Below the pieces are notes generated by a model. That model made no database searches. It had not been told where the DNA came from and saw nothing but the letters and a program-made list of their open reading frames with translations. Below, in pieces: positions 2,569 to 28,011 of a DNA stretch of 55,138 nucleotides. The stretch is from a virus (lineage: Duplodnaviria > Caudoviricetes): IMG/VR virus record IMGVR_UViG_3300027861_000039, positions 1 to 55,138 of that record. One strand, 5' to 3'. The stretch's first letter is position 1; every line of letters begins with the position of its first letter. Position numbers and translations under genes: made by a program.

Positions 2569-3030
2569 TTATGGTAAACTTACTGCTCCACCTTCGTCTT
2601 GAGCGCCTGACTCGTCAGATGCGTGTGTTCCAAGATACGAAATTTGAACTCTAGAGTTAGCCTTAGCATTGCCTCCAGTACTATACGATACTGGGATACA
2701 ATTCTGAACAGTCATTATTGGTTCAGAACCTGCTTCAGCTTGTCTGTCAACCATCGCCAGTGTTATTGATTCTAAGTTTAATAGGTCTTGAAGTTTTGGA
2801 AACTTTGGAAGTATGTGACCGCCATTACCTATAATTCTAAAACCTGAACAGTTTACGCTCACGGCTTCATAAGAAGTTTGCGTGATTTCAGCAGCTCCGT
2901 ATCGACCTAAAATGTGAACTGGTTCAGCTCCGATATTAACTGAATATGAACAGCTATCGAAAATACCAACTAGTACGTTGTCCACGTAAACTTTTGCACG
3001 GGCACCATTAAAAACCTTAGCTTTTGCCAT
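2569..3030 (-). CDS. Tail tube protein
   Basis: 153 aa, downstream of sheath; beta-rich pattern FNGARAKVYVD..VG..EPVHILG...EI typical of myovirus tubes. Confidence 0.75.
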   Translation of the reverse strand: MAKAKVFNGARAKVYVDNVLVGIFDSCSYSVNIGAEPVHILGRYGAAEITQTSYEAVSVNCSGFRIIGNGGHILPKFPKLQDLLNLESITLAMVDRQAEAGSEPIMTVQNCIPVSYSTGGNAKANSRVQISYLGTHASDESGAQDEGGAVSLP

Positions 3031-3048: not shown

Positions 3049-3705
3049 TTAAATATTGTCATTTATTCTTTCAAACAAATAACCTTTATGTTGTTTTCTA
3101 GTATTTATTAAGCACGATCTAATATGACCGCTATTTATTTTTAAATCTTTAGCGCATTCAGTTGTCATTAACCATTCACCAACATATTCGCCTTTTTTAT
3201 AAACACTTAGTTGATTTTTCTTCCTAAAACTTACACGTATTGCTTTGTAAACCCTAAAAGGTTTTGAGCCGTTACTTATTGCCCATTTTTCGTCTTTAAC
3301 GAGTTTTAAACCATTTACCCTAGCTATCCCTGACTTCTCTTCTTTAGATATTTTAGGAATTTGTTTTCTACCTAAAAGACTATTGCTTATTTTATCCCTA
3401 ACAGACTGTGGCATCTTAAAATTCTTACCGCCAGGCAATATGTTGTAACCGTTTTGATCAGTTAAACTTTTAAACATATAGATGTAGTGTTGCTCTAAAT
3501 AATTTAATTCGCTTAAACTATTAGCCCCATCAATCTCTTCTATTATAAAACTATCTTCACCGTATTTGCGGATAGCTCTATAGAAAGGATAATTAAAACT
3601 TCTACCATCTCTTAAATGCTGTTTCCACCTATCGCTCAAAGGTCTAATGGTTTGACCTATATAGACCTTATCGTTTACTGTATTCGTTACTTTATAAATT
3701 ACCAA
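3049..3705 (-). CDS. Free-standing GIY-YIG homing endonuclease (copy 1)
   Basis: VIYKVTN..YIGQT..R..H..AIRKYG..ELNYLE..NGYN, C-terminal NUMOD1-like HTH; between sheath and tube. Confidence 0.9.
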   Translation of the reverse strand: MVIYKVTNTVNDKVYIGQTIRPLSDRWKQHLRDGRSFNYPFYRAIRKYGEDSFIIEEIDGANSLSELNYLEQHYIYMFKSLTDQNGYNILPGGKNFKMPQSVRDKISNSLLGRKQIPKISKEEKSGIARVNGLKLVKDEKWAISNGSKPFRVYKAIRVSFRKKNQLSVYKKGEYVGEWLMTTECAKDLKINSGHIRSCLINTRKQHKGYLFERINDNI

Positions 3706-3707
3706 TA

Positions 3708-5858
3708 TTAACTTGCAGAGTTAGTAACTTGACTAACTTCAATTGAAATTGGTATGAAATAGATACCTGTACTAGGTTTAATTTCTAAACTAACAGTCAT
3801 AACTGGACCGCTGATTGTAACTTTCGCATTCTTAAATCCAAGAGGAGCGTCGTCAGATGCTGTAATTAGTTTTTGTTTCTTATAAGAATCCATCTTAGAG
3901 GCTAGGAAAGAAAGCGCAGTAGAAGAATCTACGTCGGCTAATGACTTACCAGTAAACGCCGTATGGAAACTTTGAGATAGATCAAGAGATACAAGATCGA
4001 CAGCATACATTGCTTGAATTGAGTTATATACAAAGTTTGTATCTTGCCCGTAAGATGTTTGGTCAGATACCCATTTGTTACCGCCAACCTCTTGCTCAAG
4101 AAACAATAGACCTGCGTCTAGCGCTCCAGAAATATCTCCTTTTGAGCCTGAATCAAAACCACTAGGGTCTGTGAAGCTAATGATGTTTGCAGATTTATTT
4201 ACAATTGGTTTGTAAAAACCAGCGGTTTGCATTCCAGCAGCGATACAAGCAGTATGCCAAGGAAAGAAAGATTGAGTAGTTCCAGAAGAATCTACCTGAC
4301 TTGATTTTTGCATTGCTACAGATACTCGAGCGCTAGCAGCAGTACTTGCTTCAGCTTTTGCTTCGGTATAGCTATCGTTCCAGTAACTTACGATTGCACT
4401 TCTGTGCTTTCTTACAGCAGCTGTTGACATTTTTAGTACGTGACTTTTAACTAAAGCATTGGTAGCTGAGATTGTATATGTTGAAGAGCTATCAGTTAAA
4501 CCGTCTGTGATATCAGCGGTAGCGTCTCGTGAAAAGAGAGGGACTACAAAGTTAGCATTAACGCCTTCAATTGCAATAGTTGCCGCTACAATATCGGCTG
4601 CTACAGTTGCTCCTCTAGCGCCTGTAAACAAGTAGTCTACAGCTGCCATAGTGTCTGGTAAACCAGCAGTTGCAGTAGCAACGAAGTCTAAAGATACTGA
4701 CTGCCCTACGGCTGTCTTAAAGTTACTAAGACCTTTCTTGATTTTACCAGGAGTAACACTTGCTGCAGTTGAGCAAATTCCAATTGCAGCTACAATATCT
4801 AATTGAGATGTTGGAGATTGTGATGAGCCTGAGTCAGCGCTAGCAGTGTAGCCTGTTCTAGAATTTATAAAATCAGCTAAGTCTTTTATGGTAGCATATT
4901 TTGAAATATCAACGCTTAGATTAGCTCCAGCGCCGGCAACAACAGTAGTTGTAAGGGTTGTTCCAGAGATAGTAAGAGTTGCGGTTGTTCCAACGTAGCC
5001 AACAGACATTGATACTTGAGCTTCAGCTATGTGACTTTCGTCAACGTTAGTATCAGCTCGTTTAATATCGATTTGATGTTGAGGCTCTTGAGAAGATGTA
5101 TATAAACCTTCAGTTAATTTAAGTGCAGCGAGATCGCCAGGAGTACTGTCGATAAGTTCAAAAGATTTACTAAAACCTTTAGTGTGAGCTGTTGCATCCG
5201 TATCTGATTCAATTTTAAGAGAATCAGCGGCAGTACCAGCAACACAACTAAAATTTGCAGGTAGAGCCGCATCTATTAAGGCAATCACTTCTGCAATAGT
5301 ATCGTAATCCCCAGCAGCTCCACCAAATACAGCTATTACTGATTCAGCGCCGCCTTGAGGTCTGATTGTAAATGATACGCCCGATAAAGCTCCAAAGTCA
5401 GTAATGACAGTACCTTCATGAGAGGCTCCAACTTCAGCAGCAACTTCCGTTACTTGGTAAAAATATCGATTACCGTCAATTCCAAAGTTCTTATCAGTAA
5501 GACTACCGTAAGCAGATGCTACCGTAGCGGTTGCTTGAACCCCAGCGTTTGTTTTAACAATGTAAATTCTATTGGCAGAGCCTGTAATGTCGGCGTCAGC
5601 ACTAGGAGATGAGAGCGCTCTAAAAGCGTCTACGATCTGACCAGATAGGTATTTGTTTGTAACCTCTTTAAGTTGATCTGGAGTAAACCAGTTATCTTTA
5701 AGACTTTCAGCAGTATACTTAGCGCCGCCGTCAGCTTCACCTATAATGATGATATTACCGCTAGAAGCAACGCCAACTGGGTTAGACTTGACATTAACCT
5801 CGAAAGGCGCACCTGGAATGTTAGTGTTTATAAAACTTGTGGTGACTCTTTGTGACAT
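3708..5858 (-). CDS. Contractile tail sheath protein
   Basis: 716 aa; N-terminal IPG...IIIIGEADGG, C-terminal ALDAGLLFL...DQT...IYFIPISI sheath pattern. Confidence 0.85.
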   Translation of the reverse strand: MSQRVTTSFINTNIPGAPFEVNVKSNPVGVASSGNIIIIGEADGGAKYTAESLKDNWFTPDQLKEVTNKYLSGQIVDAFRALSSPSADADITGSANRIYIVKTNAGVQATATVASAYGSLTDKNFGIDGNRYFYQVTEVAAEVGASHEGTVITDFGALSGVSFTIRPQGGAESVIAVFGGAAGDYDTIAEVIALIDAALPANFSCVAGTAADSLKIESDTDATAHTKGFSKSFELIDSTPGDLAALKLTEGLYTSSQEPQHQIDIKRADTNVDESHIAEAQVSMSVGYVGTTATLTISGTTLTTTVVAGAGANLSVDISKYATIKDLADFINSRTGYTASADSGSSQSPTSQLDIVAAIGICSTAASVTPGKIKKGLSNFKTAVGQSVSLDFVATATAGLPDTMAAVDYLFTGARGATVAADIVAATIAIEGVNANFVVPLFSRDATADITDGLTDSSSTYTISATNALVKSHVLKMSTAAVRKHRSAIVSYWNDSYTEAKAEASTAASARVSVAMQKSSQVDSSGTTQSFFPWHTACIAAGMQTAGFYKPIVNKSANIISFTDPSGFDSGSKGDISGALDAGLLFLEQEVGGNKWVSDQTSYGQDTNFVYNSIQAMYAVDLVSLDLSQSFHTAFTGKSLADVDSSTALSFLASKMDSYKKQKLITASDDAPLGFKNAKVTISGPVMTVSLEIKPSTGIYFIPISIEVSQVTNSAS

Positions 5859-7552: not shown

Positions 7553-8542
7553 TTAAGCATCTTCATCAATCGTAACCCAAAGGTCATTATCTTCCTCTTC
7601 AGAACCATCCACTGTAGGTAAATTACTACAAACTTTAATACCAGCCGTATCTAAGGCGTCGCCTTTTTCGATAAGCTCAAAAGCCTCAATAACCCTATAT
7701 GGAGATTTAATCCAACTTTCTTCAGTCTGTCCTGTTAGTATGATGTATCTTGAGTAGATGTTTTCAGACTGAAACGCATCATTCTTAATCATGTCAGTGC
7801 ATTTGATAGAGCTTAGCTGAAAATTGTTGTATTCAAACAGCCCTTCTCTATATCTAAGCATAGCGTATTTAACTAAATTAAATAAAAATATAGTATTCAT
7901 TGGGTCGCCGTGAGCATGACATCCAATATTGTACTGCTCTTGATTTATAATTCTTTCTCTTCTAGCTCTGTATATTTGGTATTGAGGTATAATTGCTAAC
8001 TCATCAACATCTAAGTCAGAGTCAATATCTATCCTAAAAGTAGTGGCGCTTATCTTTTCTCTAATGATAAATCCATTACCAGTTTTTGGGTCTATAGCAA
8101 CCATATCAGCGCCAACATGCTGAAAGCCACTTAAGTTAGCTGGAACTGTTATAACTCCAGTGGTTTTCTCATAGTTAGCTACTTGAAAGGGTTTTACAAT
8201 AAAGGCAATTGGCTGTCCGATATCTGACGGGTCAAGAGTTTCAATATCAATATCTTGATCACCTAACGTTGCTAGAGAATCATCCTCATCAGACTTACCC
8301 ATAGCTATAGTTACTTGAGGAAATGCTTCAGTATCGGTAACCAGCTTCATACTGTATTGAATTTTGTTATTCTTAATCCACTCTTTAGCTCTATTGATTT
8401 CTTCCTGACCATACTTAGCCTTTAAGATAGGATTATCTACAAAATCAGAAAAGATATCATCAACCAACCAAAGGTTCTTTTTGATATCTTCAATAGCCAG
8501 CTCAATCGCTGTGCGTATAATTACGTCGCCTTGAAATAGAAT
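7553..8542 (-). CDS. Putative tail terminator/neck protein (ATT start)
   Basis: Frame open 75 nt beyond the track start to ATT at 8542, 6 nt after AGGAGG; FPQVTI motif; position upstream of sheath. Confidence 0.55.
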   Translation of the reverse strand: MLFQGDVIIRTAIELAIEDIKKNLWLVDDIFSDFVDNPILKAKYGQEEINRAKEWIKNNKIQYSMKLVTDTEAFPQVTIAMGKSDEDDSLATLGDQDIDIETLDPSDIGQPIAFIVKPFQVANYEKTTGVITVPANLSGFQHVGADMVAIDPKTGNGFIIREKISATTFRIDIDSDLDVDELAIIPQYQIYRARRERIINQEQYNIGCHAHGDPMNTIFLFNLVKYAMLRYREGLFEYNNFQLSSIKCTDMIKNDAFQSENIYSRYIILTGQTEESWIKSPYRVIEAFELIEKGDALDTAGIKVCSNLPTVDGSEEEDNDLWVTIDEDA

Positions 8543-8816: not shown

Positions 8817-9587
8817 ATGTTTATATATAAGATAACTAACAAAAATAACAATAAAGTTTATATTGGTCAGACTATTTTTAATATAGACGAAAGATTCAAA
8901 CAACACATATACGCTGCCTTAAAAAGAAAAACAAAATCGATCATTTATGCCGCCATCCGCAAATACGGACCAGAAAATTTCACTATAGAAGAAATTGACG
9001 GCGCAAACTCTATGAGTGAACTAAACTATTTGGAAACACACTATATTTACAAATTCAATAGCTTATCTCCAAATGGGTATAATTTGAGCAGTGGTGGTGG
9101 AAATAAACGTACACATCCTGAAACTAAAAAGAAATTATCGTTAGCATTAAAAGGACGTAAAATAAGTCAAAAACATAAGGATATCTTAGTAGATATACAT
9201 TCTATAGAGATACACCAATATGATCTTGAGGGAAATTATATCAGATCATGGAAGTCTGCTATGGATGCTTCTAGATCGTTAAATATAGAAAATTCAGAAA
9301 TCAACAAATGTGGTAAAAAAAGAAGAAAAATGTGTGGCGGTTTTATGTGGCGATACACTAAAGAAGACAAGCTAACTCCTTATAAAAGAGGCGGCGGCGG
9401 CAAAAAAGGACATAAAGGATACAACGCAAAAAAATGTGCTTTAGTTGATAGTTCTGGAAAAATTATTAAAGAATATGAATCAGCCAAATTAGCGGCTATT
9501 AGTAATAGTTGTGATGTAAGTACAGTGTGTAAAATTTGTAATAACAAATTAGAAAAAACCAAAGGTTTAATTTTTAGTTATATCTAG
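8817..9587 (+). CDS. GIY-YIG homing endonuclease (copy 2), antisense to the structural operon
   Basis: FIYKITN..YIGQT..ELNYLE..NGYN; NUMOD3-like segment and two NUMOD1-like repeats (IHQYDLEGNYIRSWKSA). Confidence 0.9.
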   Translation: MFIYKITNKNNNKVYIGQTIFNIDERFKQHIYAALKRKTKSIIYAAIRKYGPENFTIEEIDGANSMSELNYLETHYIYKFNSLSPNGYNLSSGGGNKRTHPETKKKLSLALKGRKISQKHKDILVDIHSIEIHQYDLEGNYIRSWKSAMDASRSLNIENSEINKCGKKRRKMCGGFMWRYTKEDKLTPYKRGGGGKKGHKGYNAKKCALVDSSGKIIKEYESAKLAAISNSCDVSTVCKICNNKLEKTKGLIFSYI

Positions 9588-10344
9588 ATAGTATTTCAGG
9601 TAATATTACTGTGTCGAACTCCTTTTCTGCCCACGCAAAAGCTTTTTCAAATAATTTAACTCCTGTAGCATACTTAGCACTTTCAGGATAAACCCACTTA
9701 CCCTCCTCACGATGTTTTTCTGTAATGATTCTAAAAGTCATCACATCCCTACTAACCTTACCAGTCTTTTCATCTTTTCTTTGGTATATAGCAACACCCT
9801 TAAGAGGTGGGTCTTTATGTTTTTCTTTTAACCTAGCAGAATCTATATTAAACCTATGTAGTAATCCCAACTTAGGGCTTCCGTCTGGGTTGTGCTCTAG
9901 CTTACGATAGTTTACGTTTTCTTTTTTTAAAGCAGCTCTAATTTCATTTGTTAATGCTCGAGCCTTATCTGTTTGCTGTGTAGGATTCTTTGAATGCTCA
10001 AAAGGGATAACAGCATATCTCTTACCGTCCTTCCCAACCTTACTGGATTTGCCGTGAAGCAACTCTTCCATAAAACCAGTCTTACGCCCTTCTTCAGCCC
10101 ATAACATACTAGCGTCTAAAGAGATCACATAAAGATTTTCTTCAAGCTGTTGAAATTGAACGGCGTCTTGATATTGTTGAGATATAGAGTTTAACTCAGT
10201 AGTTGCTAAGTCAAGAGTTTTTTGATGAGTCATTTTAGCAAGCTCACCAACGGCGTCTTGAAGCTCTTTAGCTAGTGACTTTTTAGCTTCACCAAAAGAA
10301 CTTGCTATTTCTTGAACGTCAACGTCAAATCTTAAATCGCTCAT
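9574..10344 (-). CDS. Putative neck/tail completion protein
   Basis: 256 aa; WAEEG..F...RYAVIPF..TFR..W.YP pattern and position in neck cluster. Confidence 0.55.
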   Translation of the reverse strand: MSDLRFDVDVQEIASSFGEAKKSLAKELQDAVGELAKMTHQKTLDLATTELNSISQQYQDAVQFQQLEENLYVISLDASMLWAEEGRKTGFMEELLHGKSSKVGKDGKRYAVIPFEHSKNPTQQTDKARALTNEIRAALKKENVNYRKLEHNPDGSPKLGLLHRFNIDSARLKEKHKDPPLKGVAIYQRKDEKTGKVSRDVMTFRIITEKHREEGKWVYPESAKYATGVKLFEKAFAWAEKEFDTVILPEILSRYN

Positions 10345-10632
10345 CTACTCTTTCCAAGAAGACTCGCCAGGATGGTGTATGTCCTTCTTAGACTGTCTAC
10401 CAGCATGTACTGTGTGGGTTTTATGTTGCTTCATATCTCTCTTATTATAGTTGGTAGAGATTGCGTCTCCATCCCAATCGGCAGACATACCAGACCTACC
10501 AGAGCGCCAAGACACTTTACCAGTAGTCCCATCTTTTACTCTGATCTTGCCATTTTTTACAGCACCAACACCGAGCTGTCTTTTAGGTACATGTTTTGTG
10601 CTTTTCTCAGGAAGACCTTTTTTCTTTTTCAA
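10345..10632 (-). CDS. Basic 95 aa ORF, probable -1 frameshift extension of 10653-12281
   Basis: TTG start with poorly spaced SD; frame is open upstream through the A8G run and reads KKVVRKALPDL. Confidence 0.55.
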   Translation of the reverse strand: MKKKKGLPEKSTKHVPKRQLGVGAVKNGKIRVKDGTTGKVSWRSGRSGMSADWDGDAISTNYNKRDMKQHKTHTVHAGRQSKKDIHHPGESSWKE

Positions 10633-10652
10633 GTCAGGTAAAGCCTTCCTAA

Positions 10653-12281
10653 CTACTTTTTTTTGGTTGATACCTTTTTATCAACGCCCATTTTTCTTTG
10701 AACATCTTCCATAGCAACATCAAGCGGCTTTCTACCGTCAGCCCTTTTTTCATGGAGCGGAGCTTTTTTTCTTTTAGCATAAGATGTATTTCTCTCTCGC
10801 CATGTTTTAGGCTTCTTTTTTACTTTCTTTTTATCGCCTTTAGAAAGAGTTTCACACCCCTTAATAAGATCGCCGTAAAGCTTTACAATTTCAGATTTAC
10901 CAAAAGGTTTCTTTTCTTTGTCCTCATCCTCTTCTTCTTTTTCAGCTTCAGGAGGTAGCTCATCTTCCTCTTCAGGAATTTCATCTGGAGTTTCAGGAGG
11001 TAGCCCATCTTCTTCAGGAGCGGCTTCTTCAAACTCTTCCCCATCTTCCATTTGAGCTTCTTCAGCTCCTGGTAGGTCGTCCATAGACTCTTGCCCCATA
11101 ACGTCTTGCTCGGGGTTCATATTAAGTTTCTTAGCCATTTCAATCATAGATCGTAGCATTAGAATAGTAGCTTCATAAAGTTTAGGATTTTCAGTCTTAG
11201 CCTGTTCTAGCATTGGTTTGTTTTCTTTAAAAGTCATTAGAGAGGCTGCTATATCTTGACGTAGCTCTTCAGTATCTCCCTCTTCGCCTTCTGGAGATTC
11301 TTCCTCACCCATGTTAGCGTGAATCATATCTGTAAGAGCAGACTCACCCTCTTCGCCTTCCATAGGTATTTCTTCACCCTCTTCACCAGGCATCATTTCT
11401 TCTTCGCCTTCCATACCTTCTGGAGCCATTTCTCCTTCATCTTCCATAGGCATAGCGTCTATATCGCCGTCGCCGTCAATATCTGTACCAACAACGTCGT
11501 CAAGCTTATCTTCAGGATTAACGTCTAAATCACTCTCGCCCAGCTCTCCTTCTTCAAATAAACTTTCATCTTCTTCGCCATACTCTTGACCTGGAATAGC
11601 TTCGTCTGTTTCTTCACCAACAGTTTCACCTTCCATAGGCATTTCTTCGCCTTCAGGAATTTCTTCTTGATATTCAATATCGTCGTTAGAGTCTCCAATT
11701 TCACTGTCAGGCAATTCTTCAGAAGTCTCTTCACCAAACTCACCAACAGCTCCGTTATCAACAGCGCCTTCAGGCATTTCTTCACCAGCAAACTCTTCTT
11801 CACCAGGCATTTCTTCAGAATACTCTTCTTCAGGAGCTTCTTCACCCATCTCTTCATTTTCGGCGTACTCCTCTTCCATTCCACCGTCTTGGGATGCAAT
11901 GTAGTCGTCAATATGTGGGTCGTACTCTACGATTTGATCTTTGTCATTCATCTTGCCGTAAATTAAAGCTTTACTGGCTTCAGACATACTATCACCCATA
12001 CCGATAGTAAGGGTTGTACCTGCCGATTCAGAGTATTGATTCTTTAAATTTTCAATGGTAGCTTCGTCAAAAGAATCTGCAGGAACTTTATAAATCCCTT
12101 CATCTCCTGAAGATGTTACTATTTCACCACCTACGGACTGTACCCATTCTTCGATAGCTCCGTGGGCGTCTTTTAGACCGCCTGTCAGTTTGGAAAGTTC
12201 TTCATGGTTATCACTAGCAATAGCAGAACCAATACTATCTCCAACATTATCACCATTAATAGCCAAATATTTAAAATTCAT
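10653..12281 (-). CDS. mCpol/GGDEF-like palm domain fused to long acidic region
   Basis: N-terminal ~125 aa YLAINGDNVG..GGEIVTSSGDEG..TLTIGMG..EASKALIYGKMNDKDQI fits the mCpol pattern; ~300 aa E-rich; FGKSE and LSKG motifs. Confidence 0.7.
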   Translation of the reverse strand: MNFKYLAINGDNVGDSIGSAIASDNHEELSKLTGGLKDAHGAIEEWVQSVGGEIVTSSGDEGIYKVPADSFDEATIENLKNQYSESAGTTLTIGMGDSMSEASKALIYGKMNDKDQIVEYDPHIDDYIASQDGGMEEEYAENEEMGEEAPEEEYSEEMPGEEEFAGEEMPEGAVDNGAVGEFGEETSEELPDSEIGDSNDDIEYQEEIPEGEEMPMEGETVGEETDEAIPGQEYGEEDESLFEEGELGESDLDVNPEDKLDDVVGTDIDGDGDIDAMPMEDEGEMAPEGMEGEEEMMPGEEGEEIPMEGEEGESALTDMIHANMGEEESPEGEEGDTEELRQDIAASLMTFKENKPMLEQAKTENPKLYEATILMLRSMIEMAKKLNMNPEQDVMGQESMDDLPGAEEAQMEDGEEFEEAAPEEDGLPPETPDEIPEEEDELPPEAEKEEEDEDKEKKPFGKSEIVKLYGDLIKGCETLSKGDKKKVKKKPKTWRERNTSYAKRKKAPLHEKRADGRKPLDVAMEDVQRKMGVDKKVSTKKK

Positions 12282-12290
12282 TATGTACTC

Positions 12291-13235
12291 CTATTTATTT
12301 GATTTTATTGCGTCTAAAAGCATAACTACATTATCTGTATCAAAAGATTTTGGAAACTTTAAGTTAAACCTACCATCCTCTGCTTTTTTTATTTTAATTT
12401 CTTTATTGTGAAACTGTCCAAAACACACGCAAAGCTTAAAATGGTTCTCACCTTTATAGAGCATGGTTTCACAGTCTGGGCAGTTAATTTCTTCGCCCTT
12501 ATCAAGCTCTACGCTTTCCTGTCTTTTCTTTTCTTTACTATCTAAAAACTCTCTAAGTTTACTTTTTTTACTAGTAGTGTTCATAACATCTTCCTCAGAA
12601 TCATCCATTACCTCTACGCTATCTTCTTCATCGGAATGCAAAGGCTCTTCTTCAAAGTCCTCTTCACACTCTTCATCTTCATCTTCATCTTCATCTTCAT
12701 ATTCAAATCTTTCAGATAGTCTTTCATTAATCAATTGTTGAATAGCATCTCTTTCAGTGATTCTCTGATCAACAACACCTCTAATAAGGGTGTGGAGCTT
12801 TAGCCTTTCATCGACAATAGCCTGTAGCTTATCAGAGTTATCGGGCTGCTCTTGTGACAAATCACTAACGTTGTACAGTTCAAAGGTAGACATTAGTATT
12901 AAACCAATCCCTGGTAGTGATCTAAACTTAAATTCGGTAATTCTCTTACCTTCAGATACAACGTCACCATTGTAAACGTCGTTTGATATTTTATTAACGT
13001 GTAAGGTAGCGTTTGCAAAAGGTAAGGGCAGTTCTAATACGCCGCCGCTATGAAGAGGTTTTAGGTTTGCTATTAAAAACCCCAATACGGCTCTTGGTAC
13101 TATTTGCAAGGCTATTTTAATTTCAGCAGGGTCTAGTGTTGTGGTGCCGCCTAGCTTGATCAATTCATTTTTCTCAAGCACTTCAAAAATATCCTCACCC
13201 AAAATGTTTTTAACTATTTGGATGCTTTTGTTCAT
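12291..13235 (-). CDS. Hypothetical protein with acidic linker and C-terminal Cys cluster
   Basis: CPDC..CVC; MNKS, LEKN, LDKGE, IKKAE motifs. Confidence 0.65.
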   Translation of the reverse strand: MNKSIQIVKNILGEDIFEVLEKNELIKLGGTTTLDPAEIKIALQIVPRAVLGFLIANLKPLHSGGVLELPLPFANATLHVNKISNDVYNGDVVSEGKRITEFKFRSLPGIGLILMSTFELYNVSDLSQEQPDNSDKLQAIVDERLKLHTLIRGVVDQRITERDAIQQLINERLSERFEYEDEDEDEDEECEEDFEEEPLHSDEEDSVEVMDDSEEDVMNTTSKKSKLREFLDSKEKKRQESVELDKGEEINCPDCETMLYKGENHFKLCVCFGQFHNKEIKIKKAEDGRFNLKFPKSFDTDNVVMLLDAIKSNK

Positions 13236-13966: not shown

Positions 13967-14578
13967 TTAAAGATTGTTTTTATATCTAAAGATGTATTTT
14001 ACACACCTTTTGGTGTTTTTAAGATATTGAGGCATATTACCCTTAGACATATTGATATGATTAGCACAATCCGTCATGTTAATACCTTCCCATATTAATT
14101 TGTTACTATTTCGATCTATAACTTGAAAAAACTTACCACCATGATTTATTGAGGAGTTTTCTCTGTTTTTACTGTTTAACCATCTTTTTTGCATAGACTT
14201 TTTATGTTTATTCAAAAGCGAGATATTAGCAAACCTTTTCTTTTGAGCTTTTGATTGTGATTTTTTCATTTTTTCGATAGAGTCTTTGTGCCATTTTCCT
14301 CTCGAACCACCACCCTCTCTTATGTTATATCCATTGGGAGCTAAGCTATTGAATTTATGTATTAAAAGCCATTCTTTATAGTTTAATTCACTTAAACTAT
14401 TTGCACCGTCAATTTCTTCTATAGTGAAATTTTCTGGTCCGTATTTTTGGATGGCTGATTTTAAAGCTGTACATGAATTAGAACTACAATGTACAGACCA
14501 TCTTTTTTTAATGTCCTTTATGGTTTGACCGATATACGTCTTATCATTAATTTTGTTGGTTATTTTATATATAAACAT
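13967..14578 (-). CDS. GIY-YIG homing endonuclease (copy 3)
   Basis: FIYKITN..YIGQT..KYGPENFTIEEIDGANS..NGYN. Confidence 0.9.
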   Translation of the reverse strand: MFIYKITNKINDKTYIGQTIKDIKKRWSVHCSSNSCTALKSAIQKYGPENFTIEEIDGANSLSELNYKEWLLIHKFNSLAPNGYNIREGGGSRGKWHKDSIEKMKKSQSKAQKKRFANISLLNKHKKSMQKRWLNSKNRENSSINHGGKFFQVIDRNSNKLIWEGINMTDCANHINMSKGNMPQYLKNTKRCVKYIFRYKNNL

Positions 14579-17137: not shown

Positions 17138-20100
17138 CTACCCCATTTCTTCCATTTCTGGATTATAGCCCTTACTTTCTTTCATAGCCTTCTTAGCCTT
17201 GATATGAGCCATCATCTTTTGCCTGATCTTCTCAGCTAGGTCTTTTTTACCCATCTCTTTAGCATTAATATAGGCGTTTATGTTGCCTTGCAGCTCGTTT
17301 TTGCCCGAAAATGGGTCAAAAGAATATATACCCTTATCGTACATTTGCAGTTGATCTTTAGCGTGTTTTCGGCTTTTTTCAGTCTCAGACTTTGAACTAA
17401 CACCTCTTTGAGGAGATCGGAATGGTTCAACGCCAGCTCTTCTAGCAATGCCGGCTTCCATTTGTTGAGCTGATTGCTCTGGCATACCGCCGCCGTGAGC
17501 GTCTCTCAATTCAGTTCTATGTTTGGTTTGATGTAGTTTACCTTTATATCCAGGCTCACCGATAGCATCTTGGTACTCTTCTAAACCTGCGCCTGGAGGA
17601 GTTAGCATTGCGTGCGCTCCTTCGTGAAGTAGCTGCTGATCGTGTGGGTCGCCTTTAGCATTAATAGTAACACTTGTCGGATTGTGAGAACCAAGGTCTC
17701 TTCTATTGCCGCCGCCAGTATCTGGAGTTAAACCAACACTTTCTAAATATTTACCGATTCTATCAACTCGATTTTGTTCATTAGCCTTACCATCAAAACC
17801 TTCCGTCGCCATTCTTTTATCGTGGATAGGTTTGCTAAACTCACCTTTCTTAATAGTATGTAAGTGATTCAAAGCCTCAGCCGCATGTTTTCTATATTCT
17901 GGGTCTGGATGGTCTTTAATAGCTTTCTCAAGAAAAGAGTGAATTCCTTTTTTATTTCTAAGCCTCATGGTTTTAGAAGAATGTCTATAGTCAGGGTGGT
18001 GAACTTCAATTACCTTATGATCAGGAAAATGAATAGGAAGCTCTTTTTTAATCTTATCAACAAGCTCAGTAGTTTTACCTTCATTTCCATAGTCTGACGT
18101 ATGTAAAAGTAACGTGTTATCATTTAAAAGTTTAACAACAGGGTAGTGTGAGCCAAAAACATTAACAGTAGATGGAACTTGACCTGTCATCTTAGCCCTT
18201 TTAGAGCCTTTCATTTTATCTTCACTAGGCATAGAGTATATTCTCTGAAACATAGTCTTAGTGCTTTTTTTATCTTCTTTTAGGTCAGTAAGAGCTTGGG
18301 TTACTTTCTTATCTTCCTTACCAGGCTTATTAATTGGGTCGCTAGCTTCTGTGATGTGATCGTCAGGAGCTGGTCTGCCAGACTCTCTGATCATTTCTTG
18401 TTCGTGAGCGATATCTTTTATAGGCTTTGCAGCGTCTTCAGATTTTCCAAGCTTACTGTCATTTGTATGCCAATTTCCATTTATAATATGGTCTGGTAGA
18501 AGACCGGCTTTTTGGTCAGCATACCTAGTCTCAGCTGGAGCCGCTCTATTATGGTCTCCATGAGGACCAAAGTTTACCCAAGAGTTTTGACCTAAAGTCT
18601 CTGTTGCTAATGCTTTCTGAGCTAGTGGTGAGAACATTTTTTTATGTGTATTGTAAGCTTGATGCTCACCTTTAGCTCCAAAGCCGCTTTCCCCACCTTT
18701 GTGGTGACCGTTAATATCATGAACTATTCTGAATATATCGTTAGCTAAAAGATCATGACCGTCATGTTTAATACCAGTCTTTCCAAGCATAGGGTGGTCT
18801 TTAGGAGCGCTATCTCCACTACCAAAGCCTTGATCTGTTGGGTAGAACCACATATGGTTGTTATTTTTAATGTCGTGATGTAGCTCTTTAGAATTTTTAT
18901 ATGGGTTATCCATTCCAGGCTTCATTCTGGAAATCTTAATACCGCTATTCATAATATCATTAAATTGATTTTTAGTTTCACCAATCAAAGCGCCGTAAGC
19001 CTCTTGAACGTCAGGATTGTTAGGGTCGTGCTGTACCTTGTCGTACTCACCAGCAATAGCCTTGCCGTGTTCTTTGTTTATTTTAACTTCACCCTTTTCA
19101 TGCTGGTCTTCGCTTTTAAACATTCTACGATGAGTAAAATTAACGGCGTTTGTAGGCTCCCCAGTACTGTCTTCATTAGGCTGCTGCCCTAGTTCTGGAG
19201 CACTCATAGGCTCTCTACTAGCCTCACCGTGAGTACTCTTAATACCGTTTTTCCAGGCGTTAAGCATTAGCTCATGATCGCCTTCAAACTCTTTATGTAA
19301 TTTGTCATAGTGAGCGTTATGAACGTCATCTCTAAGATTTGGATTTTTATTAACCACTTCTTTAAGAGTTCTATTACTAAGCTTATTAATATAACCATAT
19401 TTAGCGCCAAGCTCTGGGCTAGACTTTATAGTTTGCTTATAAACATGATGACTTAGACCTTCAGAGTACTTACCTAAGAACCAATCTTTATCAGCCTTAT
19501 AGGTAGCGTCAGAGTATTCTCTTTTAAGTTTTTCACGCTCTTCGTCTCGAGAAGAAACATCTTCACCAATAGAAGCTGCCGTTCTAGCATGTTTTGGGAT
19601 ATTTTCTGATGAGAACTGTTCGTTAGCTGTTTGTTGAGAGTCTTGGTTGATACTGTGAGCGCCTTGAAACATTGCTAACGCAACGGCGGCTCCTTTAAGA
19701 GCATTCTTACCTTCACCTTTCTCTAACATCTCTAAGTAGTCTTCAATATGTTTCTTAAGAAGCTTAGGTGTTAGGTTGTATGTGTGACCGCCATGGTCAG
19801 TATCTGGCTCAGGCTCTATCGGAGCTGGAACTGGAGTATTTATTAATCCGTCGTATGTATGAGTTAAGGGAGTTTTGTTTATAATAGAATCTTTAACATT
19901 TTGCCTGTCTTGTGGACCCATAGAAGTCCACTCTGCTGTTTCATCCTCTTTATCAAAGGTACTTACAGACTGACCCATATCTTGAGTTCTTCCTTGATGA
20001 CTGTAAGCCAGATTTTTATGGTGCTGTATGGTATCTAAAAAATCATCGTCATGAACGTCAGACATATTATGATCTGCCTTGTCTCTCATAACCATTCTTA

Positions 20101-22993
20101 TGTAGTCTATATTGTTTACATGAAAATCACTAGCAGATTCATGATTAGCCGCCCTACTTTGAAATATTTGCTCTTGGTTTTCACCTTCCTTACCTTTTTT
20201 TACAAAATTACTCTTAGCATCTTCCGTTAGTGGTAACGTGTCTGAATCAGAAGGTTTAAAACCCATAGATCGTGGAACTTTTTTATAGCTATCTTTATAG
20301 ACTGAATGTATTTTGTCAGAGCCGGTATGTTTAGATTTAGACTCTGCCGAATGGGTTGAGACTTTTTGAGCGCCATGCTTCTTGGCTTCTTTCAATACAG
20401 AATTAATGATGTTTTCACGCCAATTTTTATGGTGTGCAGAAATTTTATCAATATGCTCTGCTTTTTGCTGAGAGCCGTTTTCTTTCAAATATCTAGTAAC
20501 TGTTTTGCCAAAATCTGACTGAACTTCATCAATCATCCAGTGCTCTGGGTCGGTTGTATCAACTCTAGCCCAAGCTATTGTGTTGTCATTGGTAGGGTGA
20601 CCTGATTGTTTTGAAACTTTCTGAACGTGTTTAAAAGTACCATACAGGTCTTTATCTTCCTTTAGAGGAGCTAGGCTATCTGGGGAGTGGTCAAGTCTAA
20701 AAATTACTTGATCTCTCTTATTGATATTTTGCATACTGTCACCCCACTTACTGTAGGATATATCGTACTTGGTTTTAGGTAGCTCTGAGACTTTTTGAGT
20801 AGCCTCATCACTAGTAATCTTACCTTTGCCTTTGAATATCTTTTTCCACTTCTCTTTTTGGTTAGGGTAAAGTTTATTCATAGTACCAACGTCTATTTTA
20901 CCGTTGTTGGCGTCGGCGTGATCTTTAACCATTTCATAAAAATGTTGATCTTCGCCATACTCGTGCTCATAGCCTCTATCTTTTATAGTTTTATTTAAAA
21001 AAGAACTCTCACCGCCGTCAGCTCTTTTTCTTTTGTGTCTATCATTTAACTCATTGAAGTTAGGAATGTGATCGTGTAAATGCTCTGGAATAAACCTTGT
21101 ATCTTGATGGGCGTCTTCATATAAATCATTAAGATGCTCTTGATTGTTTTCTTCAACATAATTTTCAACAGCGCTATTATACTGATCTTGCCAATCTTGG
21201 TCTTCTCGGTTTGCGTAGTGTAAGTCATGACTGTGAACTAATTCATGATAATGTACGCTATCACTATCTCCAAGAGTATCGGCACGCCAAGCTAATGCTG
21301 CGTCATCGTATCTTTGCTGATATTCAGGGTGCTCTTCAACGCTATCATCTTCAAGATGGTTTATCCTAGAAGGACCGCCGTACTGATCTAGAGCTGCTTT
21401 TATATCGTCAATATGAACCGTATTAAGACGACTATCATCTCCTTTTAGTCCTAACTCATCCCAGCTACCAACTCTAGAAGCTTCAAGAGATTGATTAGCA
21501 CGATTTAAAGGAATCATACCGTCAGAATATGTTTTATTGTTGTTGTAGATTTCGTTTAAAGCTTGAAAGGTTGGGTCTCCATAGTTTTGAATTGAGTCTG
21601 GATTGTCTCTAGTCCAATCATTAGCTGTATGCCTGTCAAACATTTTCTCTCTAACAGCTTCATCGTCATCGCCCTCGCCGCCAATTTCGGCTGCAATTCT
21701 ATCAGAGTTATAATAAAGGTGATTATATAATGGATAGTTTTCATCAGCTCTATTTGAGGCATCTTCATGAGCTTCGTCCCTAAGAGAGTCTAAAACATTG
21801 TCAGGTAAGTCGTTTGTTTCGTATATATCATCTTTATTATCTTGATAATGTATATTTAAATCTTCAGCGTCGTAGCCGTGCTCACCCTCATCATCGTACC
21901 ATTTTTGGAACATTTCAGCGCCATGCTTAGGGTCTATATTTTCATTATGATACAGATCGTATTTTTCTGTAAAATCCCCATGTCTTTTAATGTGCTCAAT
22001 TTGTTTTTCATCTAAGTACTCACCATTAATTAGCTGGTCCCTAACCTTGTTATGGTTAGGGTTGTAACTGTGAGTATTCCAATTATCCCAATTTTCAGCG
22101 TCAAACTCTTCTTTAGTGTCAAAATCATTCGGGTGAGAGTGGGAGTGCTCTCCATGCATACCTAAAACTTCATCCATCCAAGTTTTTTTCCAAGAAGGCT
22201 CTGCATCTTTTAATAGTGCATCTATATGGTGGTACGGCAGTCTGTGAGATGCATGTGTTAGTAGGTTTTGGATAATATTAGGTTTGAGGTTTAACGATAC
22301 CTCTGGTCTGTCGCCAAAAACTTCATCAAAATGGCTAATTGATGTTTTCTGTTTATTGATAATTTTAGAAATGTCGCTTCCAGATATGTTTTCAAGATTT
22401 TCAGGATTGCCTAGAGTTAAATCTATCACCTTGTCGTCAAAATGTTTACTATCAATAAGATGCTCTAACATATGTGGATGTTCTTTAGCCATCTTATACA
22501 TATGGGTTTTAGTAAAACCTGGATTTTTTATAATATGCTCATCGCCATCATTGGCTAATTCAGATATTTTTTTAGGAGATAGGTTAAAGTTCCTCTTTAT
22601 ACCTCTCATTCCTTTGCGATATTGCATGGCAAGATCACGCTTAACCGCTATTATAGCATCTAAATCATCTACACCGCTATGTTGAGCTTCTAAATCTTCT
22701 AAGGCTGCTTCGTTGTTTTCAGGAGTGTCGTGCTCTTCTATCGCCGCCGCTCCGCTTTGACTATGTAGATTTGTCCACCAGCTACCACCCTTCCTATTGG
22801 TTGTTAATTCTTTATATTGATCTGTAGACAACTTACCCCACTTATCTATAAATTTATTAAAACCTGTAGGAGTAACAACCTTTTCCCAATCCTGACTAAT
22901 TTGAGCGTCAGTTTCAGTATCTACATGGTCTGGAAACATGTCGTCCTGCTGCGCCTTAATCAAATCGATAATTTTTCTATAGTGTCTTGTCAT
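17138..22993 (-). CDS. 1951 aa polyvalent-type multi-module protein
   Basis: Modules with IDEVQSDF, FRIVHDINGH..ETLGQNSWVNFGP and LLHEGAH motifs separated by LIKA, LEKG, MFKS, LGKS, LEKA, IKKG. Confidence 0.7.
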   Translation of the reverse strand: MTRHYRKIIDLIKAQQDDMFPDHVDTETDAQISQDWEKVVTPTGFNKFIDKWGKLSTDQYKELTTNRKGGSWWTNLHSQSGAAAIEEHDTPENNEAALEDLEAQHSGVDDLDAIIAVKRDLAMQYRKGMRGIKRNFNLSPKKISELANDGDEHIIKNPGFTKTHMYKMAKEHPHMLEHLIDSKHFDDKVIDLTLGNPENLENISGSDISKIINKQKTSISHFDEVFGDRPEVSLNLKPNIIQNLLTHASHRLPYHHIDALLKDAEPSWKKTWMDEVLGMHGEHSHSHPNDFDTKEEFDAENWDNWNTHSYNPNHNKVRDQLINGEYLDEKQIEHIKRHGDFTEKYDLYHNENIDPKHGAEMFQKWYDDEGEHGYDAEDLNIHYQDNKDDIYETNDLPDNVLDSLRDEAHEDASNRADENYPLYNHLYYNSDRIAAEIGGEGDDDEAVREKMFDRHTANDWTRDNPDSIQNYGDPTFQALNEIYNNNKTYSDGMIPLNRANQSLEASRVGSWDELGLKGDDSRLNTVHIDDIKAALDQYGGPSRINHLEDDSVEEHPEYQQRYDDAALAWRADTLGDSDSVHYHELVHSHDLHYANREDQDWQDQYNSAVENYVEENNQEHLNDLYEDAHQDTRFIPEHLHDHIPNFNELNDRHKRKRADGGESSFLNKTIKDRGYEHEYGEDQHFYEMVKDHADANNGKIDVGTMNKLYPNQKEKWKKIFKGKGKITSDEATQKVSELPKTKYDISYSKWGDSMQNINKRDQVIFRLDHSPDSLAPLKEDKDLYGTFKHVQKVSKQSGHPTNDNTIAWARVDTTDPEHWMIDEVQSDFGKTVTRYLKENGSQQKAEHIDKISAHHKNWRENIINSVLKEAKKHGAQKVSTHSAESKSKHTGSDKIHSVYKDSYKKVPRSMGFKPSDSDTLPLTEDAKSNFVKKGKEGENQEQIFQSRAANHESASDFHVNNIDYIRMVMRDKADHNMSDVHDDDFLDTIQHHKNLAYSHQGRTQDMGQSVSTFDKEDETAEWTSMGPQDRQNVKDSIINKTPLTHTYDGLINTPVPAPIEPEPDTDHGGHTYNLTPKLLKKHIEDYLEMLEKGEGKNALKGAAVALAMFQGAHSINQDSQQTANEQFSSENIPKHARTAASIGEDVSSRDEEREKLKREYSDATYKADKDWFLGKYSEGLSHHVYKQTIKSSPELGAKYGYINKLSNRTLKEVVNKNPNLRDDVHNAHYDKLHKEFEGDHELMLNAWKNGIKSTHGEASREPMSAPELGQQPNEDSTGEPTNAVNFTHRRMFKSEDQHEKGEVKINKEHGKAIAGEYDKVQHDPNNPDVQEAYGALIGETKNQFNDIMNSGIKISRMKPGMDNPYKNSKELHHDIKNNNHMWFYPTDQGFGSGDSAPKDHPMLGKTGIKHDGHDLLANDIFRIVHDINGHHKGGESGFGAKGEHQAYNTHKKMFSPLAQKALATETLGQNSWVNFGPHGDHNRAAPAETRYADQKAGLLPDHIINGNWHTNDSKLGKSEDAAKPIKDIAHEQEMIRESGRPAPDDHITEASDPINKPGKEDKKVTQALTDLKEDKKSTKTMFQRIYSMPSEDKMKGSKRAKMTGQVPSTVNVFGSHYPVVKLLNDNTLLLHTSDYGNEGKTTELVDKIKKELPIHFPDHKVIEVHHPDYRHSSKTMRLRNKKGIHSFLEKAIKDHPDPEYRKHAAEALNHLHTIKKGEFSKPIHDKRMATEGFDGKANEQNRVDRIGKYLESVGLTPDTGGGNRRDLGSHNPTSVTINAKGDPHDQQLLHEGAHAMLTPPGAGLEEYQDAIGEPGYKGKLHQTKHRTELRDAHGGGMPEQSAQQMEAGIARRAGVEPFRSPQRGVSSKSETEKSRKHAKDQLQMYDKGIYSFDPFSGKNELQGNINAYINAKEMGKKDLAEKIRQKMMAHIKAKKAMKESKGYNPEMEEMG

Positions 22994-24192
22994 TGCTTTT
23001 TAAACCTTTCATTTAAATTATGCAAAAACTCATGATTAGGGTGACCGTTATCGTCAGCATATTCTTTAGCTTTATTTTTTTCTTCTTCTAGGGCATGGTG
23101 ATCTTTAGCAGACGTTTCTTTAAAGTCTTCTAAATGTATTGGGTGCTCACTATCAGGCTTCACTGTTTCAAACATACCAACCGCCCTACTCATATCTGAA
23201 GGTAGTCCAGAGTTATATATTCCACTAAAGCCGGAGTTTTTAATCTCAGCGTGAAAAGCCGGCTGTCTCATATATGGCATTATTTGTTCGCCATGCTTTG
23301 CTGTGAGCTTATCCATAGCTGTTTGGTATAGATCGTTAGGGTCTTTAGCAATATCGTATAGTTTTTTATCTCCCAAATTTGTAACATATTTTGATTTAGA
23401 GCCAGAAGTTACTACATCTTCAGGTTGAATCCCTTCAGCGTAGTAAAACGCCATTTTATGTTCAGGAGCGCCCTGCTTGGATTCAGAGCCAATTTTACGC
23501 TTTCCTTGAAAATTAGGGTCTATCTCTTCCAAGCCTTGTTCAGGAGAATAGTGAATTAACTTTGTATCAGGTCCAGCCGTTTCAAAAGGATGTTTTTTAT
23601 CTTCAGATTTTTTTAGGTGAAAATAGTTATTACGAATATAAACTTCAGATTTTTTCATCTTACCAGCAACATCTTTAATGAAGTCTGATTTTTTGTGAGT
23701 ATCTTCAAAATCAAATCCGTGAGTAAAATGACTCCCGTCTGCTAAAGTTGAATAGTAATCTTCTGGCTGATCTTTATGAAAAACAGTACTTTCACCCTTA
23801 TGATGTCTACCGGCTTTATCGCCATTTATGTAGTGCATTTCGTGCTTATAGCCGTCAGATATAATAGACGACTCTTGACCTAATGAGGCTGCAAAATTAT
23901 TTAAATGCTTATATGAGCTTTTTGGAGGATTATGAACTAAGATGCTTTTTTCTTTAGTCCCATACATCCCTTCCATACCCTCAGCCTTATAACCTTTTTG
24001 AGCTAAAAACTCTAAAGTTTCGTCGTGAGACATTTGTACTTTGGAAGGATATTTAGGGTTTTCGGATGAGAAGATAAAATGAGGTTTTTTATCATAAATA
24101 GGATGAGTACTTTCAGTTTTCCACAAACTTGTAATAAAGCTTTCTTTTTTACTAATATTTTGCTTAATATTCTTGTAGATGTTTTTATACAT
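22990..24192 (-). CDS. Two-module protein: SAM-lyase-like plus ART-like domain
   Basis: SSENP..GMYGTKEKSILV..LGQESSI, then MKKSE/LKKSE linker, then LIHYS..AFYY..LYD..GFSGIY. Confidence 0.55.
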   Translation of the reverse strand: MYKNIYKNIKQNISKKESFITSLWKTESTHPIYDKKPHFIFSSENPKYPSKVQMSHDETLEFLAQKGYKAEGMEGMYGTKEKSILVHNPPKSSYKHLNNFAASLGQESSIISDGYKHEMHYINGDKAGRHHKGESTVFHKDQPEDYYSTLADGSHFTHGFDFEDTHKKSDFIKDVAGKMKKSEVYIRNNYFHLKKSEDKKHPFETAGPDTKLIHYSPEQGLEEIDPNFQGKRKIGSESKQGAPEHKMAFYYAEGIQPEDVVTSGSKSKYVTNLGDKKLYDIAKDPNDLYQTAMDKLTAKHGEQIMPYMRQPAFHAEIKNSGFSGIYNSGLPSDMSRAVGMFETVKPDSEHPIHLEDFKETSAKDHHALEEEKNKAKEYADDNGHPNHEFLHNLNERFKKQ

Positions 24193-27618: not shown

Positions 27619-28011
27619 TTAACTGTCCATCCAGTACTTTAGAACGATATTGTGCTCTACTGGAACGTGAAGGTTATCAGAAACTTCGTTTGGGTCCATA
27701 TATTCCCAGTCATCACACTCTTTGTCAGGGTCTTTAGAGGCGTCTACCAGTTGATCTGGGTCTACTTTTACCTCGAAAACATAAACCATAACATCGCCAT
27801 TTTTACGAACTTTTACAAGTTTCGTATCGATGGCATCTAGCCCAGTTTCTTCCTTACACTCTCTTATACATCCCAAATATGGACATTCACCCTTATCAAG
27901 ATGACCGCCAGGCTGAGTAAACTTACCGTTATCGTTGCGTTTTCCCATTAGAAGATCGTCCTTCCAATCTCTAATTAAACAACATGCAACACGTTTGGTT
28001 TTTACCTTCAC
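27619..28011 (-). CDS. NUDIX hydrolase
   Basis: Nudix box GGHLDKGECPYLGCIRECKEETGL. Confidence 0.9.
   Translation of the reverse strand: MKVKTKRVACCLIRDWKDDLLMGKRNDNGKFTQPGGHLDKGECPYLGCIRECKEETGLDAIDTKLVKVRKNGDVMVYVFEVKVDPDQLVDASKDPDKECDDWEYMDPNEVSDNLHVPVEHNIVLKYWMDS

Follow-up and report, generated by a model that had tools for sequence, protein, structure and literature searches.

An mCpol-family palm domain with an altered active site heads a putative virion-module protein of Mx1-like myoviruses

Results

The mCpol-carrier gene and its N-terminal domain

We analysed a 55,138-base virus record from IMG/VR (IMGVR_UViG_3300027861_000039; Duplodnaviria, Caudoviricetes; 36% complete by CheckV), referred to throughout as the window, for which an earlier note, made from the sequence letters, had proposed a phage-encoded mCpol domain with an altered active site inside a cluster of virion genes. 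The gene that encodes this domain, here called the mCpol-carrier gene, occupies an open reading frame (ORF) on the minus strand at 10653–12281, with its ATG at 12279–12281, a TAG stop at 10653–10655 and a 0-frame product of 542 residues. An AGGAG sequence (12288–12292) lies 6 nt ahead of the ATG and overlaps the stop of the upstream gene, a314.

The first 127 residues of the product (11901–12281, minus strand) form the mCpol palm domain. The Pfam family mCpol (PF18182) matches residues 5–120 (11922–12269) with an E-value of 1.2e-14 and 55.1 bits against a cut-off of 26.4, covering the profile from position 1 to 114 of 114, and a separate profile search of the genome placed the same family at 11922–12269 with 54.6 bits. 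The Pfam model Cas10-Cmr2_palm2 scored below its cut-off against the protein (E = 0.023), and PHROGs returned no family for it (best E = 0.018). In a phmmer search of the PDB, mCpol structures alone matched (9nwn with E = 1.1e-7; 9mnr and 9pd0 with E = 1.5e-7), and in ten relatives with internal or tandem domains mCpol was the sole family that Pfam reported.

The predicted fold agrees with the sequence matches. An AlphaFold2 (AF2) model of residues 1–127, built from a 114-row alignment, has a predicted local distance difference test (pLDDT) value of 94.4 and a predicted template modelling score (pTM) of 0.86. The top six Foldseek matches to this model are chains of 9pd0, 9mnr and 9nwn (KpOptS/mCpol), with template modelling (TM) scores of 0.81–0.89, root mean square deviations (rmsd) of 1.5–2.3 Å and 28–30% sequence identity. 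These are followed by GGDEF and Cas10 (Csm1) palms, with 83 matches in all at E ≤ 0.001. In the ESM Atlas model of the protein, residues 1–121 superpose on an mCpol cluster with a TM score of 0.85. By sequence and by fold, the mCpol-carrier protein is a member of the mCpol domain family; Pfam, phmmer against the PDB and Foldseek all bear out the N-terminal mCpol domain that the earlier note had read from the letters, and the palm fold for which it had suggested a Foldseek check is indeed predicted.

An altered active site under selection

The alignment to KpOptS is ungapped to residue ~80, with each chain position equal to the query position minus 3, and it pairs Asp6 of KpOptS with Asn9, Asp8 with Asp11, Ser30 with Thr33, Asp57 with Asp60 and Gly58 with Glu61. 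The Asn9 codon lies at 12255–12257 and the codons of the SGDE hairpin (Ser58-Gly59-Asp60-Glu61) at 12099–12110, both on the minus strand. In the parts of PMC12657218 consulted, Asp6 and Asp57 of KpOptS hold the metals on the triphosphate and are critical for activity, and Ser30 is a base-selecting contact. At the end of strand 1, where an OptS-type enzyme has its metal-binding aspartate, the phage domain has Asn9, and an acidic residue is present on the β-hairpin (Asp60, followed by Glu61). As the equivalent of Asp6 is missing, we do not file the protein as an OptS-type cyclase. KpOptS has no acidic residue opposite Glu61, which may compensate for the charge lost at Asn9; Asp11, Asp60 and Glu61 would then surround the metal as Asp6, Asp8 and Asp57 do in KpOptS. 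The substitution at residue 9, with Asp11 and Asp60 retained, had been read correctly in the earlier note, to the exact residue number.

A library search with residues 1–127 scanned 1.84 billion cluster representatives and gave 746 matches at E ≤ 1e-3, 433 at E ≤ 1e-10 and 53 at E ≤ 1e-30. Our residue counts rest on the best 150 of these 746 relatives, in 154 aligned rows. Residue 9, which the earlier note had wanted surveyed, is Asp in 78/154 rows and Asn in 73/154 and takes no other residue type (71 Asn and 78 Asp among the 150 relatives). The same rows are almost uniform at Asp11 (150), Asp60 (150), Glu61 (142), Gly94 (152), Lys110 (150) and Lys114 (143), and Gly96 is also nearly invariant. 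The nucleotide-contacting place at residue 33 is kept, as Ser in 120 rows and Thr in 22. A word-index search for short stand-alone relatives returned only seven fragments, from short contigs.

To place the two residue types, a tree was made by the 'quick' method from 124 alignment columns, with columns 9 and 58 excluded; 150 of the 154 rows entered it, rows with fewer than 100 aligned residues having been dropped. A single clade, with a support of 97 (Shimodaira–Hasegawa-like approximate likelihood ratio test, SH-aLRT), takes in 70 of the 71 Asn rows. The Asp/Asn label needs two changes on this tree, a number reached in 0/500 shuffles. Residue 58 follows residue 9: Asn9 is paired with a residue other than Gly in 70/71 rows (Ser in 59), and Asp9 with Gly58 in 77/78. 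Asp60 is retained in 69/71 Asn-type rows, and among the 150 rows the pattern D..D..GGDE occurs 64 times and N..D..SGDE 58 times. Compared with L002, the closest IMG/VR relative, the domain has a pN of 0.12 and a pS of 0.68, giving a dN/dS of ~0.08 with synonymous sites near saturation. Because the Asn rows form one clade, co-vary with residue 58, retain Asp60 and show a low dN/dS, we read Asn9 as a fixed, co-varying state of a site under selection and not as the mark of a dying enzyme.

A predicted two-fold dimer

Two copies of the domain were modelled together with ATP and Mg, using an alignment of our own, a set-up that departs from the calibration of the tool. The interface score (ipSAE) was 0.83 in three runs, against 0.37 for the best control; contacts agreed by 100% and the partner pLDDT was at least 92. 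In the calibration, the mark for a dimer was reached by 20/30 solved one-chain pairs and by 1/23 solved single chains. The predicted interface is symmetric and comprises residues 17–33, 55–59, 63 and 98–103, with the hairpins that carry Ser58 and Gly59 facing each other across the two-fold axis. The model supports an OptS-like dimer, without showing binding, and the homo-oligomer of OptS-type enzymes, in which two protomers together form the nucleotide pocket, is thereby present as a prediction.

Architecture of the carrier

Beyond the palm domain lies a 415-residue tail with 140 Asp/Glu and 41 Lys/Arg. Its first part, residues 128–335 (11277–11900, minus strand), is an acidic low-complexity tether in which 87 of the 208 residues are Asp or Glu and one is Lys or Arg, and which varies in length and sequence among relatives; the acidic fusion described in the earlier note is thus plain in the composition. 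Conserved alignment columns define a helical module at residues 339–392 (11106–11267, minus strand). This is followed, by charge profile, by a second acidic stretch (residues 393–455) and a basic tail (residues 456–542), together at 10656–11105 on the minus strand; the single F-G-K-S-E lies in the basic tail. The tails of relatives are acidic throughout, with a median Asp plus Glu fraction of 0.34 in the Asn-type and 0.25 in the Asp-type, and the whole proteins are 294–962 residues long. The association of head and carrier is close: PF18182 was present in 23/23 proteins that were found through the helical module alone.

Proteolytic cleavage was considered as part of the mechanism and dropped. 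The putative cleavage motifs of the earlier note lack statistical support, since the mCpol-carrier protein has one h-x-K-[SA]-E against 0.2 expected (p = 0.2) and the tails of 149 relatives have 81 K[SA]E against 81.2 expected. An F/L-x-K-S-E near the C-terminus is common to close relatives.

A frameshift site leads into an end module

The 0-frame ORF ends at an in-phase slippery heptamer, A_AAA_AAG (10656–10662, minus strand), which abuts the stop codon; the A-run at the site is eight bases long. In the -1 frame an end module of ~95 residues, b95, follows on the same strand (10345–10677); this frame is open from 10677, and a TTG-initiated ORF within it spans 10345–10632. A hairpin at 10607–10652 (minus strand) starts 6 nt past the heptamer, with a folding energy of -15.5 kcal/mol and a z-score of -1.73.

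Relatives show both split and fused arrangements. Of 73 distinct relatives, from which duplicates had been removed by end-module DNA, 37 have the end module in the -1 frame, 30 have it fused in frame and 6 have it in the +1 frame. An in-phase X_XXY_YYZ heptamer (A_AAA_AAG, C_CCA_AAG or C_CCA_AAA) was found in the overlap of 36 of the 37 relatives with the -1 arrangement. The residues read in the -1 frame ahead of the TTG align with the fused proteins, which include the homologue in Myxococcus phage Mx1, where the end module is in frame, and several metagenomic relatives. At this site two relatives, L004 and L005, have the same 23-mer, between flanks that are ~78% identical, and yet they enter the 23-mer in different frames; the split is therefore no miscounted A-run. 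The +1-frame relatives (L085, L124, L128, L132, L051 and L038) have overlaps of 110–236 nt and no slippery heptamer.

The site thus has both an in-phase heptamer and an overlapping -1 ORF belonging to a conserved protein. We conclude that ribosomes probably reach the b95 end module through a -1 slip on A_AAA_AAG, which makes this a new and well-supported site of recoding. Programmed -1 frameshifts add C-terminal modules to phage structural proteins, as in the tail chaperones G/GT, and A_AAA_AAG is the dnaX heptamer. The site resembles those of G/GT in its in-phase X_XXY_YYZ heptamer at the 3' end of a late gene, its overlapping -1 ORF and its fused relatives. It differs in lying upstream of the sheath gene and not between tube and tape measure, and in the enzyme-type head of the protein that it extends.

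Genomic setting

The surroundings were compared in 51 IMG/VR loci anchored on the mCpol domain, some of which run off a contig end and some of which repeat a phage already represented from another sample. The recurring order is u173, v309, a gene of ~150 residues, a314, mCpol, end module, n256, n304, two or three small genes, sheath and tube. Homologues of n256 and n304 are each present in 50 of these loci, the sheath in 47, the tube in 43, a314 in 42 and v309 in 38. In the window, all of the following lie on the minus strand. The upstream neighbour a314 (12291–13235; homologue in 42/51 loci) contains an acidic stretch and Cys pairs, and the downstream neighbour n256 (9574–10344; 50/51 loci) belongs to phrog_16819 and is a possible neck protein. 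The n304 gene (7553–8467; phrog_1000; 50/51 loci) has a weak, sub-cut-off match to Pfam SP10_terminator. The tail sheath (3708–5858) is 41–44% identical to the annotated Mx1 tail sheath, and the probable tail tube (2569–3030) shares 43% identity with the gene next after the sheath in Mx1. In addition, v309 matches phrog_1004, a virion structural protein, with an E-value of 5.9e-9.

For n256, the AF2 model has a pLDDT of 81.8, and its best VIA-align row is the SaPI1 neck chain 9mu2_P (Z = 8.8, rmsd 3.0, 98 residues aligned), a borderline match that the tool rates as common. Foldseek gave no match to this model at E ≤ 0.001, and profile searches of the PDB with n256 and n304 returned chance-level rows only.

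A 9-mer, CAATCTTTA, is strongly over-represented, with 11 copies in the window against 1.41 expected and 0/100 shuffles reaching 11. Its minus-strand sites include 6907, 7541, 8792, 13968, 16244, 26188, 27594 and 29437, and most copies lie 4–60 nt before the starts of morphogenesis genes, the prohead protease gene among them, which suggests that it is a late promoter or leader element. An exact copy (13968–13976, minus strand) stands ahead of the unit u238-a314-mCpol-b95-n256. Scans for sigma-70 promoters and terminators between 9000 and 17500 stayed at shuffle level (25 promoter-like hits against 21.6; 2 terminator-like against 5.2). From the conserved neck-to-sheath order and the upstream CAATCTTTA copy, we take the mCpol-carrier gene to belong to the late, particle-building programme, with the neck and tail genes. 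The virion-cluster setting of the earlier note is upheld by this conserved block, which runs on to the tail sheath and tube.

The carrier with and without its mCpol head

As a check on the bias of anchoring loci on mCpol, 80 loci were anchored on n256 instead; nine had too little upstream DNA, and 71 were judged. The mCpol domain lies beside n256 in 66/71, on the same strand in 64 and with n256 inverted in two. The remaining five lack mCpol; their helical and end modules are nevertheless retained, in the gene immediately upstream of n256. Hidden Markov models of the helical module and of the end module each match 77 of the 80 loci. Three of the five mCpol-less carriers begin with CxYC repeats in place of the palm domain. 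These carriers (L092, 3565–4995; L093, 3670–4989; L095, 3565–4995) have arrays of C-K/Q/P-Y-C pairs that are possibly metal-binding.

Among 50,697 phage records, tblastn found Mx1 as the sole match, both with the whole protein and with the domain alone (at E ≤ 1), and Mx1 was likewise the only match to n304. The Mx1 protein WNM70340.1 (OR576727.2), from the sole cultured relative found, has the same place before the neck genes, sheath and tube and the same helical and end modules, the latter fused in frame. Its head differs in having S-I-D-H-L-E for the h-[DN]-G-D-x-h-G strand and DLGAVG for SSGDEG, so that both catalytic places are lost, and its tail differs in being Gly/Pro-rich with 12% Asp/Glu. 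On these comparisons, the carrier is the core gene of the clade, and the mCpol head a very common payload that has been lost, replaced or left to decay in some lineages.

Other features of the window

Several further genes in the window merit a record. An acidic, likely scaffold protein (30031–30687, plus strand), encoded just before the major capsid protein (MCP), has five h-x-K-[SA]-E against 0.2 expected, a number that 0/300 shuffles reach, and the start of the MCP (..LMK-ALEAG) may be a candidate prohead-protease site. A 400-residue product (22990–24192, minus strand) has two h-x-K-[SA]-E against 0.1 expected and a weak Pfam match to S-adenosylmethionine lyase (E = 2.1e-5; 24.9 bits, below the 28-bit cut-off), and part of it matches the Mx1 gene directly before the sheath.

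A 130-residue product (27619–28011, minus strand), whose gene adjoins that of the prohead protease, has a Nudix-box-like motif, read by eye, and is 37.5% identical to a stretch of a 1479-residue Mx1 protein annotated as a NUDIX hydrolase in the Mx1 structural block. For a 1951-residue product (17138–22993, minus strand), neither Pfam nor PHROGs gave a match. Parts of this protein are separate ORFs of varying size in relatives, and its place in Mx1 is taken by the 1479-residue NUDIX protein and a 619-residue protein annotated as a kinase.

Free-standing genes for GIY-YIG homing endonucleases interrupt the structural block at 3049–3705, 8817–9587, 13967–14578 and 25058–25711; two of them match PHROG homing-endonuclease families (E down to 1.1e-34), and the two others share the same N-terminal sequence. 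On the plus strand, a 634-residue product (42491–44395) contains an intein (Pfam Intein_splicing, E = 3.7e-13, and Hint-type models), and 34902–36668 encodes a full-length GroEL-type chaperonin (Pfam Cpn60_TCP1, E = 3.3e-35).

Discussion

Relation to known mCpol systems

The Panoptes synthases are treated in PMC12657218 and PMC12657230, and type II in PMC13577387. In the portions of the literature searched, mCpol figures only as the synthase of bacterial guards that punish the removal of cyclic nucleotides by phages. The portions that pair mCpol with phage or virion, and those on Mx1, describe no phage-encoded mCpol, supplementary tables lying outside this scope.

The phage domain is like Panoptes OptS/mCpol (PF18182; 9mnr, 9pd0, 9nwn) in its palm fold, in its length, in having Asp60 as the equivalent of Asp57 and Thr33 in the place of Ser30, and in the symmetric dimer with facing hairpins that is predicted for it. 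It is unlike KpOptS in having Asn for Asp6 and a hairpin, SGDE, in which an additional Glu takes the place of a KpOptS Gly. Panoptes OptS is a stand-alone protein of ~120–130 residues, whereas the phage domain is fused to the 415-residue acidic carrier.

The setting differs as well. A Panoptes synthase sits in a two-gene operon with an adjacent effector (S-2TM-beta or CARF-TM) in a bacterial or archaeal defence locus. The neighbours conserved across our 51 loci do not include such an effector: among a314, the end module, n256, n304 and the sheath, Pfam and PHROG searches (no transmembrane prediction was run) gave no 2TM-beta or CARF-TM match. The record is also viral, and its MCP (30697–32079) shares 54% identity with the Mx1 MCP and ~25% with capsid proteins of the SPO1 type. 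Lacking an adjacent effector, borne by a phage and fused to a carrier, this locus is not a Panoptes system. Cas10 palms and GGDEF cyclases share the palm fold and a GGD[DE]-type hairpin with the phage domain (DosC GGDEF, E = 1e-5; Csm1, E of ~6e-5 to 3e-4), although these matches are far weaker than that to mCpol, and the second palm, HD or sensory domains are missing here.

Proposed role

We propose, at a probability of roughly one half, that the protein is a virion-module carrier of Mx1-like myoviruses whose dimeric head is functional in binding nucleotides and possibly catalytic. In chain order it would consist of the palm (residues 1–127), a polyacidic, disordered tether of ~200 residues, the helical module, the second acidic stretch, the basic tail and the ~95-residue end module. 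A fraction of ribosomes would slip by -1 at A_AAA_AAG, yielding a short and a long form. The carrier would anchor the protein to the particle, either in the interior of the head or at the neck, with the mCpol domain as its payload, and this domain would dimerise about a two-fold axis as OptS does, with the SGDE hairpins facing. Since Asp11, Asp60 and Glu61 are retained, we infer that a nucleoside triphosphate (NTP) and metal are still bound at the site, which may also still join nucleotides, whether at an altered rate or with a different metal. The head would have its effect in the cytoplasm, either at a late stage of infection or once delivered along with the DNA.

A bolder version of this proposal, which we regard as improbable, is that an active synthase of cyclic nucleotides rides in the particle on a polyanionic tether and so pre-empts Panoptes-type guards from the first seconds of infection. 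The tether would keep the enzyme clear of the packed DNA and let it leave with the genome; the phage would write its own second messenger, against guards that fire when such signals vanish. The Asn9/Ser58 clade would then be a retuned enzyme, adapted to another metal, rate or product, rather than an inactive one.

Several observations weigh against a functional head on a virion-module carrier. Asn9 may abolish catalysis, given that Asp6 of KpOptS holds metal and is critical, and degenerate copies may be commoner beyond the 150 rows nearest the query. The high dimer score may reflect memory of solved OptS oligomers. The degenerate head of Mx1, together with the five mCpol-less relatives, means that catalysis cannot be essential to the core role of the carrier. 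The fold match behind the placement of n256 at the neck is borderline (Z = 8.8). As to the frameshift, the downstream hairpin is only modestly above shuffles, 8/200 of which fold as well, and in six of the 73 relatives the end module lies in the +1 frame.

Alternative explanations

The earlier note had listed four functional options for a phage copy, namely supply of the repressing signal, a dead decoy, poisoning of the host enzyme and structural co-option. The first enters into a counter-defence reading, which we consider unlikely and in which the head would synthesise a cyclic di- or oligonucleotide to disrupt the nucleotide-based immunity of the host. It might, for instance, supply an 'all is well' signal that shuts a Panoptes-type effector while phage sponges or phosphodiesterases drain host signals, with the carrier delivering or timing it. 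The closest characterised relatives are indeed the Panoptes synthases, whose product holds an effector off, according to the parts of PMC12657218 and PMC12657230 consulted. With D..D..GGDE in 64/150 rows and N..D..SGDE in 58/150, most members count as having a full catalytic set, and the model predicts that the geometry of the dimer is preserved. Genes for counter-defence usually have a patchy distribution in accessory regions, and near-universal, positionally fixed genes are atypical among them. This gene, by contrast, is near-universal (66/71) and fixed among structural genes, and its late co-transcription would not suit an early need unless the protein were packaged. Family scans of part of the ORFs in the window found no sponge or phosphodiesterase, and the Asn variant may be slow or inactive.

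The fixed structural-gene setting speaks for structural exaptation, to which we give a similarly low probability and in which the palm is a mere dimerising knob of a neck or head protein, with no nucleotide chemistry. Mx1 retains a fold-level match and the helical and end modules without the catalytic residues, and five carriers do without mCpol altogether, so that the co-option named in the earlier note gains some support. Two isoforms produced by frameshifting are typical of virion components, and the short and long forms expected here would fit that general pattern. What a mere knob leaves unaccounted for is the conservation of the site: Asp11, Asp60, Glu61, Gly94, Gly96, Lys110 and Lys114 are nearly invariant across 150 diverged relatives, and residue 9 is confined to Asp (78) or Asn (73) in the 154 rows. 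The same fixed Asn within an otherwise invariant site under strong purifying selection makes the dead decoy of the earlier note less likely. That the Asn form sequesters nucleotides without turnover, or pairs with and inactivates a host mCpol, would fit a change from Asp to Asn at the metal-binding position with the nucleotide-contacting Ser/Thr33 kept, and we nonetheless hold it to be very unlikely. At 28–30% identity to KpOptS, mixed dimers are improbable; half of the family has Asp9 in the same protein design, which is thus independent of a dead site; and a late protein of the structural module could achieve little by stoichiometric sequestration. Least probable of all, to the point that we set little store by it, is that the mCpol ORF and the end module look separate through a mis-assembled A-run, or that the gene is decaying. 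The run of eight A does stand at the site, and loss of one base would give the same frame relation; against this, the -1 relation recurs in 37/73 independent relatives, 36 of them with a heptamer and some with heptamers that are not long homopolymers (C_CCA_AAG, C_CCA_AAA), L004 and L005 combine an identical A-run with different entry frames, and the dN/dS of ~0.08 is not that of a decaying gene.

Implications

In this phage clade, mCpol is near-universal and positionally fixed in a structural-module protein of large, mostly uncultured myoviruses of ~150 kb. The head of Mx1 is degenerate, and Mx1 can show where the carrier is located but not the function of the enzyme. The Asn9/Ser58 and Asp9/Gly58 clades amount to a natural paired experiment on the metal site. 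If the head only binds nucleotides or dimerises, the fold of an immune enzyme would have been recruited into a virion protein; if it is active, these phages would make immune-type nucleotides, a new move in the signalling arms race.

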